DNA of 64,000 nt from a phage. The translations under genes and the position numbers were made by a program. This document shows, piece by piece, positions 55,423 to 64,000 of this stretch (its first letter is position 1; each line of letters begins with the position of its first letter). The stretch lies in the sequence record PZ053912.1. One strand, given 5' to 3'. Under the pieces are notes generated by a model. It was not told the DNA's origin, did not search any database, and saw nothing but the letters and a program-made list of their open reading frames with translations.

Positions 55423-58400
55423 ATGGCCGACATCAAACGTAAGTTCAGAGCCGAAGACGGTCTGGACGCCGGTGGCGACAAGATTGTTAACGTAGCATTA
55501 GCCGACCGTACAGTAGGTACTGATGGCGTAAACGTTGACTTCCTGGTACAAGAAAACACCGTTCAAGTATATGATTCTACGCGTGGATATAACAAAGGAT
55601 TTGTTGTTCTTTATGACAACCGTTTATATCAAGCAATAAATGATATCGTGTCTCCTTCCGGGGCATTTAACCTTTTACAATGGCGTGCAGTTCGTACCGA
55701 TGCACAATGGATAACTGTAGCTTCTGGGACTTATCAACTTTCTTCAGGTGAATCGATTTCGGTTAACACTGGTGCCGGCAATGATATGGTTTTCACGTTG
55801 CCAAATGCGCCGGTTGATGGTGACACTATTGTTTTAGCTGATATCGGTGGAAGAACCGGGACAGTTAAAGTACAGATTAACGCGTCTGTGCAGAGTATTT
55901 TAAACTTTAGAGGTGAACAAGTTCGTACAGTTTTAATGACGCGCCCACGTTCACAACTATTGTTTGTGTTTAGTAATCGTTTGTGGCAGATGTATATCAT
56001 TGATTACGGTAAAGAATCAATCACTGTTACACCTGCTACACCACATCAAGCGCAAGCAAACGATTTTATTGTTCTTCGTTTTACTAGTGCAGCACCAATC
56101 AACATTACACTTCCACGTAATGCTAACAATGGTGATATAATCAGCCTAGTTGATTTAGATAAATTAAACCCACTGTATCATACGATTATTAAAACATTTG
56201 ATGATACAACGTCTATTGGCGAAGTCGGGACTCATATCGTCGAAGGTAGAACTTCTTCTGACGCGTTTTTTGTTTTTGATGCTGCAAATAGTTTATGGCG
56301 TATATGGGAAGGCGACCAGAAATCACGTCTTCGTATTATCCGTACAGATTCAAATATTCGCCCAAATGAAGAAGTTCTTATTTTTGGTACAAATAACGCT
56401 ACAGCAGAAACTATTAACCTTACGCTTCCTACAGGAATTTTGACCGGTGACACTGTTAAAATTTCAATGAACTACATGCGTAAAGGCCAAACAGTAAAAA
56501 TTAAAGCTGCCGAAGGTGATACAATTGCTTCTTCTGTCGCATTACTTCAGTTCCCTAAACGTTCTGAATATCCACCTGATACTCAATGGGTCTCTGTTAC
56601 TGAACTAGAATTCAATGGCACTACTTCATATGTTCCTGTATTAGAATTAGCGTATATCGAAGACACCGATTCTGACACTCATTATTGGGTTGTGCAACAG
56701 AATGTCCCTACGGTAGAACGTGTTGATGCTGGAACTGATGCTACACGAGCTCGTTTAGGTGTTATTGCTCTTGCTACTCAAGCGCAAGCAAATGTTGATT
56801 TAGAGAATACTCCAGCTAAAGAAGTGGCTATTACTCCTGAAACGTTGGCAAATCGTACAGCAACTGAAGCTCGACGCGGTATCGCTAAAATTGCTACAAC
56901 AGCACAAGTTAACCAGAATTCCACAGCATCATTTGTGGACGATACTATTGTTACGCCTAAAAAACTAAATGAGCGTACAGCAACTGAAACTCGTCGCGGT
57001 CTTGCTGAAATTGCTACTCAGACTGAAACCGATGCTGGTCTTGATGACGCAACGATTATTACGCCTAAGAAATTGCAGGCACGTCAGGGCTCTGAAACGC
57101 TGTCTGGTATAGTTAAATATGTATCGACTACTTCTGCTACTCCTGCTGAAACTCGTGGGGCTGCAGGCACTAACGTTTATAATAAAACCGTAAATAATTT
57201 AACTATTTCTCCTAAAGCCCTTGACCAATATAAAGCAACTTATGCTCAACAAGGCGCAGTAATTTTAGCTATTGATAGTGAAGTAATTGCTGGTCAATCA
57301 CAAGCAGGTTATTCTCACGCTGTAGTAACTCCTGAAACACTACATAAGAAAACTTCTACTGATGGACGTATTGGTTTAATTGAAATTGCTACGCAAGCAG
57401 AAACTAATGCTGGGACTGATTATACACGTGCAGTAACGCCTAAGACGTTAAATGATAGGAGAGCGACAGAAGGATTATCCGGCATAGCCGAAATTGCTAC
57501 GCAAGTTGAATTTGATACTGGAACTGATGATACTCGTATCTCAACTCCACTGAAAATTAAAACTCATTTTGATTCTTCCGACCGTACCAGTGTTAATTCT
57601 GATTCCGGACTTATTGAAGAAGGAACCTTGTGGAACCATTATACTCTTGATATTTCTAAAGCAAATGAAACACAACGTGGTACACTTCGCGTAGCGACCC
57701 AGGCAGAATCTAAAGCAGGAACTTTAGATGATGTTCTTATTACTCCTAAAAAGCTTTTAGGGACTAAGTCCACTGAAACGTCTGAAGGCGTAATTAAGGT
57801 TGCTACTCAGGCTGAAACTGTAACAGGAACTTCTGCTAATACTGCTGTATCTCCTAAGAATTTAAAATGGATTGTGCAGAGTGAACCAACATGGGCTGCT
57901 ACTACAGCAATTCGTGGATTTGTTAAAACTTCATCAGGTTCTATTACATTCGTTGGTAATGATACAGTCGGTTCTACACAGAACTTAGAGCTATACGAGA
58001 AAAATAGCTATGCAGTATCACCGTATGAATTAAACCGTGTATTAGCAAATTACTTGCCATTAAAAGCAAAAGCTGCTGACACGAATTTATTGGATGGCCT
58101 AGATTCATCTCAGTTCATTCGTAGGGACATTGCACAGACGGTTAATGGTTCACTAACCTTAACCCAACAAACGAATCTGAGTGCCCCTCTTGTATCATCT
58201 AGTACGGCTACGTTTGGTGGTTCGGTATCTGCTAATAGTACATTAACTATTTCTAATACAGGTGCTTCAACTCGCTTAATATTTGAAAAAGGTCCACAAA
58301 CTGGAAACAACCCTGCTCAGGCGATGAATATCCGTGTATGGGGTAACAAATTCGCCGGCGGTTCTGATACATCTCGTGCTACGATATTTGAAGTTGGTGA

Positions 58401-59298
58401 TGAAACATCTAACCACTTTTATTCACAACGGGATAACCTTGGTAATATTACTTTCAGCATCAACGGTACAGTTCGGCCGATTAATGTTAATGCATCCGGA
58501 ACATTGAATGCTAATGGTGCGGCAACATTTGGACGTTCGGTGACAGCACAGGGTGAATTTATAACCTATAGTGCAAATGCTTTCAGAGCAATAAATGGTG
58601 ATTATGGATTCTTTATTCGCAATGATGCTGCTAACACCTATTTTATGCTTACTGCATCAGGTGATCAGACTGGCGGATTTAATGGATTACGTCCTTTGGC
58701 TATTAATAATGCATCTGGACAAGTAACGATTGGTGAAAGCTTAATCATTGCCAAAGGTGCTACTATAAATTCAGGTGGTTTAACTGTTAACTCGAGAATT
58801 CGTTCTCAGGGTTCTAAAACTGCTGATTTATACACTCGTGCTCCTACTGCTGATACAGTCGGATTCTGGTCAATCGATATTAACGATTCAGCCACTTATA
58901 ACCAATTCCCGGGTTATTTTAAAATGGTTGAAAAAACTAATGAAGTGACTGGGCTTCCGTACTTAGAACGTGGCGAAGAAGTTAAATCTCCTGGTACATT
59001 GACTCAGTTTGGTAACACGCTTGATTCACTTTACCAAGATTGGATTACTTATCCAACAACTCCGGAAGCACGTACCACTCGCTGGACCCGTACATGGCAG
59101 AAAACTAAAAATTCTTGGTCAAGTTTTGTTCAGGTATTTGATGGTGGAAACCCTCCTCAACCTTCTGATATTGGCGCTTTACCTTCTGATAATGCAACAA
59201 TCGGAAACTTGACAATAAGGGATTTCTTAAGGATTGGTAATGTCCGCATTATTCCAGACCCTGTGAATAAATCTGTTAAATTTGAGTGGATTGAATAA
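55423..59298 (+). CDS. 34: long tail fibre proximal subunit gp34
   Basis: 1291 aa; N-terminus MADIKRKFRAEDGLDAGGDKIVNVALADRTVGTDGVNVDF and C-terminus ...NKSVKFEWIE closely match remembered T4 gp34. Confidence 0.95.
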   Translation: MADIKRKFRAEDGLDAGGDKIVNVALADRTVGTDGVNVDFLVQENTVQVYDSTRGYNKGFVVLYDNRLYQAINDIVSPSGAFNLLQWRAVRTDAQWITVASGTYQLSSGESISVNTGAGNDMVFTLPNAPVDGDTIVLADIGGRTGTVKVQINASVQSILNFRGEQVRTVLMTRPRSQLLFVFSNRLWQMYIIDYGKESITVTPATPHQAQANDFIVLRFTSAAPINITLPRNANNGDIISLVDLDKLNPLYHTIIKTFDDTTSIGEVGTHIVEGRTSSDAFFVFDAANSLWRIWEGDQKSRLRIIRTDSNIRPNEEVLIFGTNNATAETINLTLPTGILTGDTVKISMNYMRKGQTVKIKAAEGDTIASSVALLQFPKRSEYPPDTQWVSVTELEFNGTTSYVPVLELAYIEDTDSDTHYWVVQQNVPTVERVDAGTDATRARLGVIALATQAQANVDLENTPAKEVAITPETLANRTATEARRGIAKIATTAQVNQNSTASFVDDTIVTPKKLNERTATETRRGLAEIATQTETDAGLDDATIITPKKLQARQGSETLSGIVKYVSTTSATPAETRGAAGTNVYNKTVNNLTISPKALDQYKATYAQQGAVILAIDSEVIAGQSQAGYSHAVVTPETLHKKTSTDGRIGLIEIATQAETNAGTDYTRAVTPKTLNDRRATEGLSGIAEIATQVEFDTGTDDTRISTPLKIKTHFDSSDRTSVNSDSGLIEEGTLWNHYTLDISKANETQRGTLRVATQAESKAGTLDDVLITPKKLLGTKSTETSEGVIKVATQAETVTGTSANTAVSPKNLKWIVQSEPTWAATTAIRGFVKTSSGSITFVGNDTVGSTQNLELYEKNSYAVSPYELNRVLANYLPLKAKAADTNLLDGLDSSQFIRRDIAQTVNGSLTLTQQTNLSAPLVSSSTATFGGSVSANSTLTISNTGASTRLIFEKGPQTGNNPAQAMNIRVWGNKFAGGSDTSRATIFEVGDETSNHFYSQRDNLGNITFSINGTVRPINVNASGTLNANGAATFGRSVTAQGEFITYSANAFRAINGDYGFFIRNDAANTYFMLTASGDQTGGFNGLRPLAINNASGQVTIGESLIIAKGATINSGGLTVNSRIRSQGSKTADLYTRAPTADTVGFWSIDINDSATYNQFPGYFKMVEKTNEVTGLPYLERGEEVKSPGTLTQFGNTLDSLYQDWITYPTTPEARTTRWTRTWQKTKNSWSSFVQVFDGGNPPQPSDIGALPSDNATIGNLTIRDFLRIGNVRIIPDPVNKSVKFEWIE

Positions 59299-59306
59299 GA
59301 GGTATT

Positions 59307-60434
59307 ATGGAAAAATTTATGGCTAAGTTTAGACAAGGATACGTCCAAACGCCATTTTTATCGGAAAGCAATTCAGTACGATTTAAATTAAGCATAGCGG
59401 GATCTTGCCCGCTATCAACATCTCCTGCTTATATTAAGTTCCAGGATAATCCACTTGGGTCCCAGGTTTTTTCCGTTGGATTAAACGTTCGTGTAATAAA
59501 TCCTACAACAGGTGCAGTAGTTGAATCTAAGACATATAATTTCTCTACTGAAAACGACGCCACGTCAAGTGCATTTGTTACTTTCATGGACACATATGCT
59601 TCAAATTTTATATTTGCTCTTGTTACTAACGCTAAAACAAACTTTCCACCGGAAGTTCTTGCATGGTTTAATAAAGCCGGGAGTTCTGCTATTCCATTAG
59701 CTCAACAAGTTTTAAATATAGTGGACATTTCTTATTCGGCATTTTATATTTCTGGTAAGAATGCTATAGCACTAGAACATATTAAGTATAGTAATAAGAA
59801 AACTTCAACCGACTATAGTACACCACTTGATGTTGTGTATGACACGATCGACGATATTGGTGCTACCGGCTTCCCTAGTCGTACGTATGAATCGACAGAC
59901 ACATTTTTATCTGCCGTTGGAGGTACTAATAATGAAATTAAAAGGATGCCTACAACATCCCTTATTACACCTCTCGCTGGGTATAAATTGAAGCCTGGAG
60001 ATTTCCTTTATATGAAATTCCAACTAATGGCCGATGCCGATTTGTTAGCACAAGGGACGACACGACTTTCTATTCGGTTCTTTAAATCTCCTTCTACTTC
60101 ACCTATTTCATTTAAGGATATAAACTTTGATGGGGGTGCAGGTGAATGGAAGATATATGAAGACTACATAGAAATTCCTGCCGGTGCTGACGGGTTCACG
60201 ATTTATTGTTATCGTACAGCTCCAGTCGGGCAAGGTGGATTAAGAAACGTTATATTCACTGAAGTATCATGTAATGGAAGCGTTTCAAAACCTGCCGAGT
60301 TTGGTATAAATGGTATTCGTGTAAATTATGTTTCAGAATCTTTAAGTGCCCCAGACATAATGACATTACCTACTCAATCTTCAACTGATACTGGTAAGGT
60401 ATTTGGACAAGAATTTAAAGAAGCGTCAGAATAA
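59307..60434 (+). CDS. 35: long tail fibre hinge connector gp35
   Basis: 375 aa (T4 gp35 372 aa); synteny 34-35-36-37. Confidence 0.85.
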   Translation: MEKFMAKFRQGYVQTPFLSESNSVRFKLSIAGSCPLSTSPAYIKFQDNPLGSQVFSVGLNVRVINPTTGAVVESKTYNFSTENDATSSAFVTFMDTYASNFIFALVTNAKTNFPPEVLAWFNKAGSSAIPLAQQVLNIVDISYSAFYISGKNAIALEHIKYSNKKTSTDYSTPLDVVYDTIDDIGATGFPSRTYESTDTFLSAVGGTNNEIKRMPTTSLITPLAGYKLKPGDFLYMKFQLMADADLLAQGTTRLSIRFFKSPSTSPISFKDINFDGGAGEWKIYEDYIEIPAGADGFTIYCYRTAPVGQGGLRNVIFTEVSCNGSVSKPAEFGINGIRVNYVSESLSAPDIMTLPTQSSTDTGKVFGQEFKEASE

Positions 60435-60439
60435 ATTTA

Positions 60440-60464
60440 GGGAGACTTCGGTCTCCCATTTTTG
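60440..60464 (+). terminator. terminator hairpin after gene 35
   Basis: gggagacTTCGgtctccc followed by atttttg, then late promoter for gene 36. Confidence 0.7.
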
Positions 60465-60472
60465 TATAAATA
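60465..60472 (+). promoter_or_regulatory. late promoter (TATAAATA) for gene 36
   Basis: Exact TATAAATA directly after the gene 35 terminator hairpin. Confidence 0.65.
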
Positions 60473-60496
60473 TGGTATACATATAAGGAGACAACT

Positions 60497-61159
60497 ATGG
60501 CCGATTTAAAAGCTGGTAGTACAACTGGTGGTGCTGTTATATGGCACCAAGGTAATTTCCCTTTAATGCCAGCAGGTGATGACGTCCTGTATAAAACGTT
60601 TAAACTCTATTCAGAATATAATAAACCACAAGCGGCTGATAACGATTTCGTTTCTAAAGCTAATGGTGGTACTTACTCCGCGACTGTTCGATTTAATGGA
60701 GGCGTACATGTTCCTACTATAGGTAGTAGTCAACAGTGTGGTGTTTATCCAGGTAACGGTGATGCAGCTACTTTTGCTATGGCAAATATTGACATCGTTT
60801 CGTGGAATGGTATTGGTTTTAAGTCATCACAAGGTTCAGCAGACCGAACTGTTGTAATTAATGCACGTAATGGTGATATTAGTACAAAAGGCGTTGTGAC
60901 AGCAGTAGGTCAAATAAGAAGTAATGCAGTTGCTCCAGTTGCAGTGAATGACCTTACTCGTAAAGATTATGTTGATGGACGAATAAATATTGTTACGGAT
61001 AACGCAAATTCCCGTGTATTGCGTTCTGGCGATACCATGACTGGTACTTTAACAGCACCAAACTTTTTCTCACAGAATCCGGCGTCTGAGGCTAATCATG
61101 TTCCTCGTTTCGACCAGATTGTAATTAAAGATTCTGTTCAAGATTTCGGCTATTATTAA
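60497..61159 (+). CDS. 36: long tail fibre distal subunit, small (gp36)
   Basis: 220 aa; late promoter TATAAATA upstream; synteny. Confidence 0.85.
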
Positions 61160-61167
61160 GAGGACTT

Positions 61168-64000
61168 ATGGCTACATTAAAACAGATACAATTTAAAAGA
61201 AGCAAAGTAGCAGGAGTTAATCCTACTGCAGCACAATTAGCCGAAGGCGAATTAGCGATAAACTTAAAAGATCGAACTCTTTTTACTAAAGATGACCTCG
61301 GTAATATTATTAGCCTAGGCTTTGCTAAGGGTGGGGATATTAACGGTAATGTAACTCAAAATGGTGATTATTTACAAAACGGCACGTATAATCTTAATGG
61401 AAACCAGTTTGTTTATGCCGGTAAATATATTGAATTTTTACCTAAGACCGTCGGTAACGGTGCCTGGGCTAACCAACATAAAAATAAAGCTCCTATCTTT
61501 ACAGATTTGAGTTCAACTACTTCTACTTCAGAATACCATCCGCTAATTAAGCAGCGTTATAAAAATGGGACTTTTTCTGTTGGCACGTTAGTAAACAAAG
61601 GAAGTTTTAAAATTCATTATATCGATGAAACAGGTGTGTCCAAATATTGGACCTTTAATCGTAATGGTAATTTTCAAGTTGATACCGGTGATATTGCTGC
61701 AGGTGCTGGTAATATCTGGGCTTTAGGTAACTTGGAATCTCGTAATGGATTTATTTCAGGTCCTCGTGTTATCACCAAAAATATCAACGTAAGCACCAAA
61801 ACATTTATCCCAAATAACGACGCAGGTTATGATATTGTTTCTTTACCGACTTGGATTTATAATCCACCAGCAGATGGTTCCGACCGTGATACAAACGGAT
61901 TGAACTACATGCGGAAAATGCGAGCTTCAAATACTTCTAGCATTTTCCATGAAATAGTTGACTGTCGTTCGGGAAAGCCACAGGAAATTTCTTGGTGGAC
62001 CGGCGTAGGACCTTCGTCTTTCCAGTGGGCCTTTGATACCTCTGGTCGTATTACTGCAGGTAAATCTATTTCAGTAGGTCTTCCTGATAGCGGTACAAAT
62101 GGTCGTTATCCACTTGAATCTGCAATTTCTATTGGTATTGCAATTGGTGATAATGACACTGGTATTAAATGGGTTCGTGATGGCGTTTATGACCTGATGG
62201 CTAATGGTATTTCAACTGCTACCATTTTGAATAACGGTATTAACAGCACTAAGAAATTGACAGTTGGTTATAGTCGAGATTCCGGTTCTACTTGGGATTT
62301 CCCAAATAACAACCAAGCAATGTTTACTGCGCGCACCGATATTGATGGTAATAATAACGGCGATGGTCAGACTCATATCGGTTATAGCAGCAATTCTAAA
62401 ATGTATCACTATTTCCGTGGTACAGGTCGTATGGCTGTTGGTATGTCCCAAGGTCTCCTTGTTGAACCAGGAATTTTAGATATTAACACTGGTTCTAACA
62501 GAGTTGCTATTAGAGCAGATGGTACATTTGATTCAACCCAGCGTATTTCTATGCGTACAGGTTTATTTTTTGGCGGCGATGATAACACTAATGCCTTATC
62601 ATTTAAAGCGCCTACAGGTGTTGACGGGACAAAAACCATTAACTGGGATGCAGGTACTCGTAATGGACAGAATAAAAATACTGTAACCATTAAAGCGTGG
62701 GGTAACTCATTTAACTCAACTCCAGGTAATAGAGAAACTGTATTCGAAGTTTCAGATTCACAAGGTTATTATTTTTACGCTCAACGTACCAACCCGGCTT
62801 CTGGTGAAACAGTAGGTCCGGTTAACTTTAAATTTAACGGAACTGTCGAAACAGGCCATATCATAGGCCTTGGTAATATAAGTGCCTCCGGTACAGGTTC
62901 TTTTGGTGGTAATGTTACCATGTCTAATGGTTTGTTTGTCCAAGGCGGTTCTTCTATTACAGGCCAAGTAAAAATTGGTGGAACAGCAGATGCATTGAGA
63001 ATTTGGAACGCCGAATATGGCGCTATTTTCCGCCGTTCTGAAGATAAGCTTTATATTATTCCAACCCCGCAGAATGCTGGTGAATCAGGTGGTATTTCTA
63101 ATTTACGTCCGTTCTATATTACATTAAGTAATGGTAAAGTTTCCATGGATCATGATGTAGATATCGGTGGCGGTAGATTTAAAGTAGAAGTGGCTGGAAC
63201 AACATCAGGGCAACGTATTACAGTTAATATGGCATCAGATGCTATTAGAATAAATGCTCCAACGCAAGAGTCTTCTAACTTCATCCAAGGACGTAAAGCA
63301 GATGTTCCGAAATGGTATTTAGGTATTGGCGATGGCGGCAACGTCGTTCGTATGCACAGTTACACCTACTCCCACGGTATTGCATTAAACTCTGATACGG
63401 TTGATATAGCTAAACCTCTTAGAATAGGTTCAGCTCAATTAGGCACTGATGGTAATATCACCGGTGGTTCTGGCAACTTTGCTAATTTGAATACCACAAT
63501 AAATAACCTTAAGACGGATATTGTCTCAAGTTACCCAATTGGCGCTCCGATTCCTTGGCCTACTGATACACCTCCTGAAGGTTATGCCATAATGGAAGGT
63601 CAAACATTTGATGCTGACTTGTATCCTAAGTTAGCTGCTGTGTATCCTTCCGGCGCTCTGCCTGATATGCGTGGTCAAACTATCAAGGGTAAACCATCTG
63701 GGCGCGCTGTATTAAGTACAGAAGCAGACGGTGTTAAGTCACATAGCCATAGTGCAAGTGCATCAAGCACAGATTTGGGTACTAAGACCACTTCTAGTTT
63801 TGATTACGGTAGCAAAACGACTTCAAGCTTTGATTATGGTACTAAGACCAGTAATACCACTGGTAACCATAACCATACAGTGAGTGGTAATACTAGTTCC
63901 GCAGGAGCTCACCAACACGCGCGTTCAGGTCCTCAGGTACAAGGCGGCATACCCACTAGCGTATTCTATGATGGATACAATAGTGCGGGTCCAAACGGCA
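61168..64000 (+). CDS. 37: long tail fibre distal subunit, large (gp37), 3' end outside window
   Basis: Open frame from ATG 61168 to window edge; N-terminus [13 protein letters not shown] and distal His-rich receptor-binding region (SHSHSAS...GNHNHT) as T4 gp37. Confidence 0.95.
63781..63840 (+). repeat. 30-nt tandem duplication in gp37 tip region ([20 protein letters not shown])
   Basis: Two adjacent 30-nt units encoding near-identical decapeptides. Confidence 0.8.

Follow-up and report, generated by a model that had tools for sequence, protein, structure and literature searches.

The 64,000-nt stretch of phage DNA that we analysed (sequence record PZ053912.1, hereafter the window) ends within gene 37, which encodes the distal subunit of the long tail fibre, and close to that end a ten-residue peptide unit is repeated in tandem. 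The locus raises the question of whether the duplication marks a copy-number hotspot in the region that sets receptor specificity, as an earlier sequence-only reading of this DNA had proposed, or a structural part of the fibre tip. We find that the duplicated decapeptide is real yet ordinary and already known in kind, and that it is probably a structural module, a rung of the stem, in the needle of receptor-binding tips of the T4 gp37 and lambda Stf type.

A decapeptide array between two histidine boxes

In tips of this fold each chain of a trimer runs from a collar to the head and back, giving a six-stranded needle with iron bound by His-x-His boxes along its core (Bas63 paper, PMC12609058; Islam 2019, PMC6957217); we call the boxes ahead of the head outbound and those after it returning. 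The T4 tip structure, PDB 2XGF, comprises the collar, a needle with seven iron sites and the head, and the final 200 visible residues of the window's gp37 match it (phmmer E = 1.8e-68), query residues 18-197 pairing with chain residues 2-173, i.e. the collar and the outbound needle. The collar family PF07484 scores 43 bits against a cut-off of 24 directly ahead of the needle, and the domain aligns to 2XGF chain A. The parts of the gene on which the argument turns are as follows.

61168..64000, + strand: codons 1-944 of gene 37, long tail fibre distal subunit (translation, homology)
63241..63465, + strand: gp37 trimerisation region, residues 692-766 (Pfam PF20744, E = 2.2e-10)
63541..63684, + strand: collar domain, residues 792-839, counterpart of T4 domain D10 (Pfam PF07484, E = 4.5e-11)
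63742..63750, + strand: first outbound His-x-His box, H859/H861 in SHSHS, equivalent to T4 H883/H885
63763..63852, + strand: decapeptide array of three in-register units (30-nt / 10-aa period, repeat search)
63778-63807, + strand: first unit in the register of the sequence-only reading, residues 871-880
63808-63837, + strand: second unit in the same register, residues 881-890
63868..63876, + strand: second outbound His-x-His box, H901/H903 in GNHNHT, equivalent to T4 H915/H917
63910..63918, + strand: third outbound His-x-His box, H915/H917 in AHQHA, equivalent to T4 H929/H931
63919..63999, + strand: putative head (tip) domain, first 27 of ~52 residues (head segments of relatives)

The repeat search places the copies of the array at 63763, 63793 and 63823, with a spacing of 30 nt; in the register of the earlier reading, two units are followed directly by a partial third, GTKTSNTTG. 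Adjacent 10-mers are identical at 9 of 10 positions; among 5000 shuffles that preserved the composition of the last 200 residues, not one gave a match of 8/10 or better. At the DNA level adjacent units agree at 23 of 30 positions, the maximum among 1000 codon shuffles being 21, and across the array as a whole the identity of neighbouring units ranges from 19 to 24 of 30 nt. The two full units differ at seven nucleotides, six of these changes being synonymous. The copies are too diverged in DNA for Tandem Repeats Finder, which made no call here.

The motifs that the sequence-only reading had picked out (SHSHSAS, GNHNHT and AHQHA) correspond to H859/H861, H901/H903 and H915/H917. Its placing of the duplication 'just before' these motifs has to be amended: the duplication itself is confirmed, but the array sits between boxes 1 and 2. 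The three outbound boxes, at residues 859, 901 and 915, are spaced by 42 and then 14 residues, in keeping with a family pattern in which the distance from box 1 to box 2 (d1) is 12 + 10n residues and the next step is 14, and these two spacings are common to 21 other tips with three outbound boxes. The Pfam family PF03335 (Phage_fiber), a 14-residue His-box repeat, scores 12.8 bits on the window fragment with its three visible boxes, below the cut-off of 20; on full tips it reaches 25.5 bits (the close homologue P0003), 38.6 bits (P0006) and 42.4 bits (T4). It models the His boxes, and the decapeptide falls outside its coverage.

A spacing rule across the family

To see how the unit behaves across the family, we assembled 127 unique complete tips, after removal of duplicates, from a protein search, IMG/VR loci, GTDB genomes and phage records. 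The protein search gave only sequences of 349 aa or fewer, mostly prophage fibres or fragments, and full-length gp37 sequences were taken from the phage records. Outbound and returning boxes were told apart by their spacing patterns.

Box 1 and box 2 are separated by 22, 32, 42, 52 or 62 residues in all of these tips save one, in which d1 is 31, while the last returning boxes follow one another in 1, 2, 3, 4 or 5 steps of 9 residues (a number that we call n9). The two counts are tied by the relation n9 = (d1 - 12)/10, which is exact in 123 of the 127 tips; when the counts were permuted, it held in 54 tips on average and in 71 at most. Three of the four deviations are minor: one box has His replaced by Tyr, another is truncated, in a degenerating Erwinia dacicola genome, and the third is a 1-residue indel. 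In length, the outbound and returning strands correspond in 126 tips. A single real exception is left, locus L005 (IMGVR_UViG_3300030021_000020, contig range 1904-5569), on a 10.5-kb metagenomic viral contig from IMG/VR. One further metagenome contig, found via the junction between units, also follows the rule. The window's spacing (d1 = 42) is the commonest state, found in 75 of the 127 tips, and that of T4 (d1 = 32) occurs in 34; the number of full FDYG units among the relatives ranges from 0 to 4. The returning boxes are as diverged in DNA as the decapeptides, sharing 15-21 of 27 nt among themselves.

Two features of the tip set deserve mention in their own right. Contigs of Candidatus Erwinia dacicola (L065, L057, L059, L081 and L100) carry several copies of the tip within the genome of this insect symbiont, and the truncated His box of L065 (GAH-TVAIG) suggests decaying prophage fibre genes. 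In addition, loci L037-L048 and L088, on GTDB genome contigs, have a tip 100% identical to lambda stf/orf-314 despite being assigned to Pseudomonas, Shewanella, Paenibacillus, Chromatium, Leeuwenhoekiella, Kitasatospora and Bradyrhizobium, among others; several of these contigs are ~48.4-48.5 kb long at roughly 1x coverage, which looks like contamination of the assemblies with lambda DNA.

Comparison with T4, lambda and T2/T6-type fibres

The T4 tip resembles that of the window in its collar, SHSHS-type box, decapeptide spacer, two further outbound boxes and head, but has one unit fewer, with two in-register units (residues 890-909) where the window has three. Both the 2XGF alignment and a four-way alignment open a clean 10-residue gap in T4 at one decapeptide, so that the comparison with T4 called for by the sequence-only reading bears out a duplication relative to that phage. 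Boxes 1 and 2 are accordingly 32 residues apart in T4 and 42 in the window. T4 has outbound boxes at 883, 915 and 929, returning boxes at 966, 980, 989 and 998, and the decapeptide at 895-905; against these seven His-x-His motifs the window's relatives have eight, by way of one more returning box. The heads differ as well, that of T4 being 34 residues long and the window's head class ~52 residues and unrelated in sequence.

The C-terminus of Stf of phage lambda (orf-314 of J02459) has a two-unit stem layout identical to that of the window. Its His boxes are spaced by 42 and 14 residues, followed by the head and then by 14, 9, 9 and 9, and it has the end ...ENTVKNIAFNYIVRLA in common with the window's relatives; lambda differs in the head sequence and the fibre shaft, being a siphovirus with a much shorter fibre. 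The duplicated decapeptide is therefore a long-published, standard feature of the family.

Fibres of the T2/T6/S16 type, in which gp37 is capped by a separate gp38 adhesin, match in genomic position and in their role as host-range determinant, but differ in that the window's gp37 itself carries a T4-type C-terminal His-box needle. The gp38 of T2/T6-type phages is an adhesin of ~260 aa, unlike the T4 gp38 chaperone (PMC3157838). In the relatives of the window phage, gene 37 is followed by a 183-aa gene whose product is 68% identical to T4 gp38, and with the needle present in gp37 and a T4-type gp38 in the relatives the arrangement is that of T4 and not of T2/T6 with its separate gp38 adhesin.

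Close relatives and mosaicism of gene 37

The closest database matches over 63400-64000, at 96-97% DNA identity, are NRG-P0074, a20, phiD1 and phiC600P9, together with the 3.4-kb fragment ECO26.1 3-1. The tips of the four named phages have the same decapeptides as the window, down to the GSK variant in unit 2, and belong to its head class. The middle of gp37, by contrast, is mosaic and locally only 55-70% identical in DNA; over the protein as a whole the identity is 80-85%. No database record closely matches gene 37 over its whole length. In steps of 150 nt along 61168-64000, the gene is between ~55% and 100% identical in DNA to HY126, NRG-P0074 and phiD1, high and low values alternating (HY126 was used in place of moskry, whose record stops within gene 37).

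Homology to the HY126/moskry group stops at query position 2751, i.e. window position 63918, in the AHQH box, past which this group has a different head yet keeps the five-box returning strand. Breaks in homology between phages fall at the head-flanking His boxes and none at the decapeptides. It has been proposed that adhesin specificities are swapped by way of conserved motifs (Tetart 1996 and 1998, summarised in PMC3157838), and the position of the break, at a His box adjacent to the head, fits such an exchange.

All close relatives have the 9-residue-spaced returning boxes and the C-terminal ...ENTVKNxAFNYIVRLA, and NRG-P0074, phiD1 and HY126, at 96-97% DNA identity over the visible tip, each combine the extra decapeptide with an extra 9-residue returning box (HTVGIGAHS), T4 having neither. 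The continuation of the window was sought in IMG/VR, where an exact 52-nt match led only to an 81%-identical contig, and in a metagenome collection, where a 49-nt pattern found no match; a search with the unit-junction pattern gave one related contig only, which is not the continuation.

A proposed rung model of the needle stem

Since the chain doubles back, an insertion on the outbound strand should need a partner on the returning strand. In the model that we propose, the 10-residue units would fill the outbound strand between His boxes 1 and 2, with the successive 9-residue 'xIGxHxHxV' boxes of the other, returning strand running alongside them, one rung consisting of one outbound decapeptide and one returning His box. 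The array would then set the length and stability of the stem, leaving receptor contact to the head past AHQHA. Two contacts reported in T4, G921-F970 and G964-H929 (Islam 2019, PMC6957217), imply an antiparallel register, and extending that register would put residues 895-905 opposite ~987-997, where the 9-residue boxes lie. Differences in copy number would arise mainly through exchange of whole tip modules or through paired changes; slippage of the decapeptide alone is an unlikely source of them. With only one of the 127 tips mismatched in length between its outbound and returning strands, a change on a single strand appears to be selected against.

For the window phage the model, together with the layout of all close relatives, predicts a fifth returning box where T4 has four, and thus eight His-x-His motifs against seven and one extra metal site. 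The T4 needle measures ~150 Å (PMC3004832), and from the ~50 outbound residues that span this length in T4, a needle one unit longer, as that of the window phage would be, should be roughly 3 nm longer.

Several points weigh against this model. L005 has two full decapeptides and only four returning boxes; an unmatched stem may be tolerated in nature, or the contig may reflect mis-assembly or a collapse of the His-box repeats. The 127 tips share ancestry, so that fewer independent events lie behind them than the counts suggest; at least six co-changes are supported. The side-by-side pairing is one that we infer from sequence spacing and the two published contacts, and an AlphaFold2 monomer of P0003, built from an 18-sequence alignment, was unusable (pLDDT 53, pTM 0.19). 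Finally, the returning strand of the window phage falls past the window end, and its fifth box is taken from the relatives.

Receptor contact, host range and other explanations

In T4 gp37 the collar (D10) comprises residues 811-881 plus 1010-1026 and the needle (D11) residues 882-1009, while the residues needed for binding of lipopolysaccharide (LPS) or OmpC lie at ~929-959 (Islam 2019, PMC6957217). The T4 counterpart of the unit, residues 895-905, thus lies in the proximal D11 stem and ends 24 residues ahead of the first receptor-critical residue, H929. In the window 22 residues separate the end of the array from the head, whose first residue, 918, follows AHQHA. By homology to 2XGF the array is predicted to be the outbound strand of the needle stem and not the receptor-contacting head; the head, visible only in its first 27 residues, is by homology to T4 the putative receptor-contact region.

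These positions bear on the alternative put forward by the sequence-only reading, in which the tandem decapeptide is a copy-number hotspot within the specificity region, such that host range shifts when a unit is gained or lost. The relatives do vary in copy number (0 to 4 full FDYG units), and T4 stands one unit below the window; Tetart et al. reportedly found in 1996 that duplications in the 3'-terminal part of T4 gene 37 expanded host range. The unit, however, is in the proximal stem and stops short of the head, so that the first half of the claim, which put the repeat in the specificity region, is not supported. Nor is the second: the copies have diverged in DNA, with the two full units differing mostly at synonymous positions, which marks them as old duplications and a poor substrate for slippage; the number of units changes almost only in step with the returning boxes; and the breaks in homology between phages avoid the decapeptides. 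Head classes tell the same story. Six of the head clusters (at 50% identity) hold two stem lengths each, the returning-box count following in every one, with L005, in one of these clusters, as the single exception, and the window's own head class is found on a 32-residue stem in L007, L009 and L011 and on a 42-residue stem in NRG-P0074 and phiD1, which makes head identity and stem length separable. The unit thus proves largely standard among relatives and lies outside the receptor contact, although its copy number varies. We consider the hotspot explanation quite unlikely.

Still less probable is that in the window phage the extra decapeptide lacks a matching returning box and bulges or loops out from the stem. 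L005, with its two full units and four returning boxes, offers a precedent, and the window's returning strand is outside the visible sequence; but the relatives with 96-97% identity across the visible tip all have five returning boxes, and L005 is one tip in 127, from a short metagenome contig. That the decapeptide is a chance or low-complexity similarity within a Ser/Thr/Gly-rich region, to which the biased composition and the silence of Tandem Repeats Finder might point, is refuted by the shuffles, none of which reached even 8/10 against the 9/10 observed, and by the conservation of the unit in register throughout the family, leaving this explanation a negligible probability.

Implications

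With the two-unit layout present in the published lambda sequence, in many T4-like phages and in prophages, and with the T4 fold solved, the feature is minor as a discovery. The stem-rung reading has practical uses nonetheless. In annotation, decapeptides of this kind would flag the stem rather than a specificity determinant, and the pairing of 10 plus 9 residues provides a simple sequence check to distinguish intact from damaged tips. In fibre engineering, the outbound units of a swapped or resized tip should stay matched to its returning His boxes, and the junctions of swaps would best be placed at the head-flanking His boxes.

A further idea, which we regard as rather unlikely, is that stem length, at one to five rungs, is a second selectable axis of host adaptation, independent of the head. 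If so, one head on a shorter or longer needle would reach receptors through surface layers of varied thickness, and evolution would return repeatedly to one constrained step, the paired change of 10 plus 9 residues, of which at least six instances are counted here. An effect of stem length on infection is the sole route by which the feature could gain in interest.

Gene identity and neighbouring genes

An ATG at 61168 on the + strand opens the reading frame, of which 944 codons can be translated up to the window end at 64000. Its product is 85% identical to gp37 of NRG-P0074 and 50% to that of T4 (blastp E = 0), the N-terminal two thirds being only ~45-50% identical to T4. As full-length gp37 of the relatives has 1037-1041 residues (1041 aa in the NRG-P0074 homologue), ~97 codons of the gene lie past the window end; the sequence-only reading was thus right that the window truncates it. 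Its assignment of the protein as a T4-type gp37 is upheld by the match to T4 gp37 and by the genes directly upstream, which give the window the T4 gene order g34-g35-g36-g37.

55423-59298: open reading frame matching T4 gp34 (82% protein identity), directly upstream group
59307-60434: open reading frame matching T4 gp35 (63% protein identity), directly upstream group
60497-61159: open reading frame matching T4 gp36 (79% protein identity), directly upstream group

Scans of the whole window (1-64000) for tRNA genes and for Rfam families at gathering thresholds found none. The spacer between g35 and g36 (window 60438-60484) holds the sole tandem-repeat call within 60000-64000, and in it lies a G+C-rich hairpin with a T run. 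The hairpin is followed by the T4 late-promoter motif TATAAATA at 60465-60472 and by a degenerate second copy, TATACATA; over the window as a whole, TATAAATA occurs 18 times against ~7 expected.

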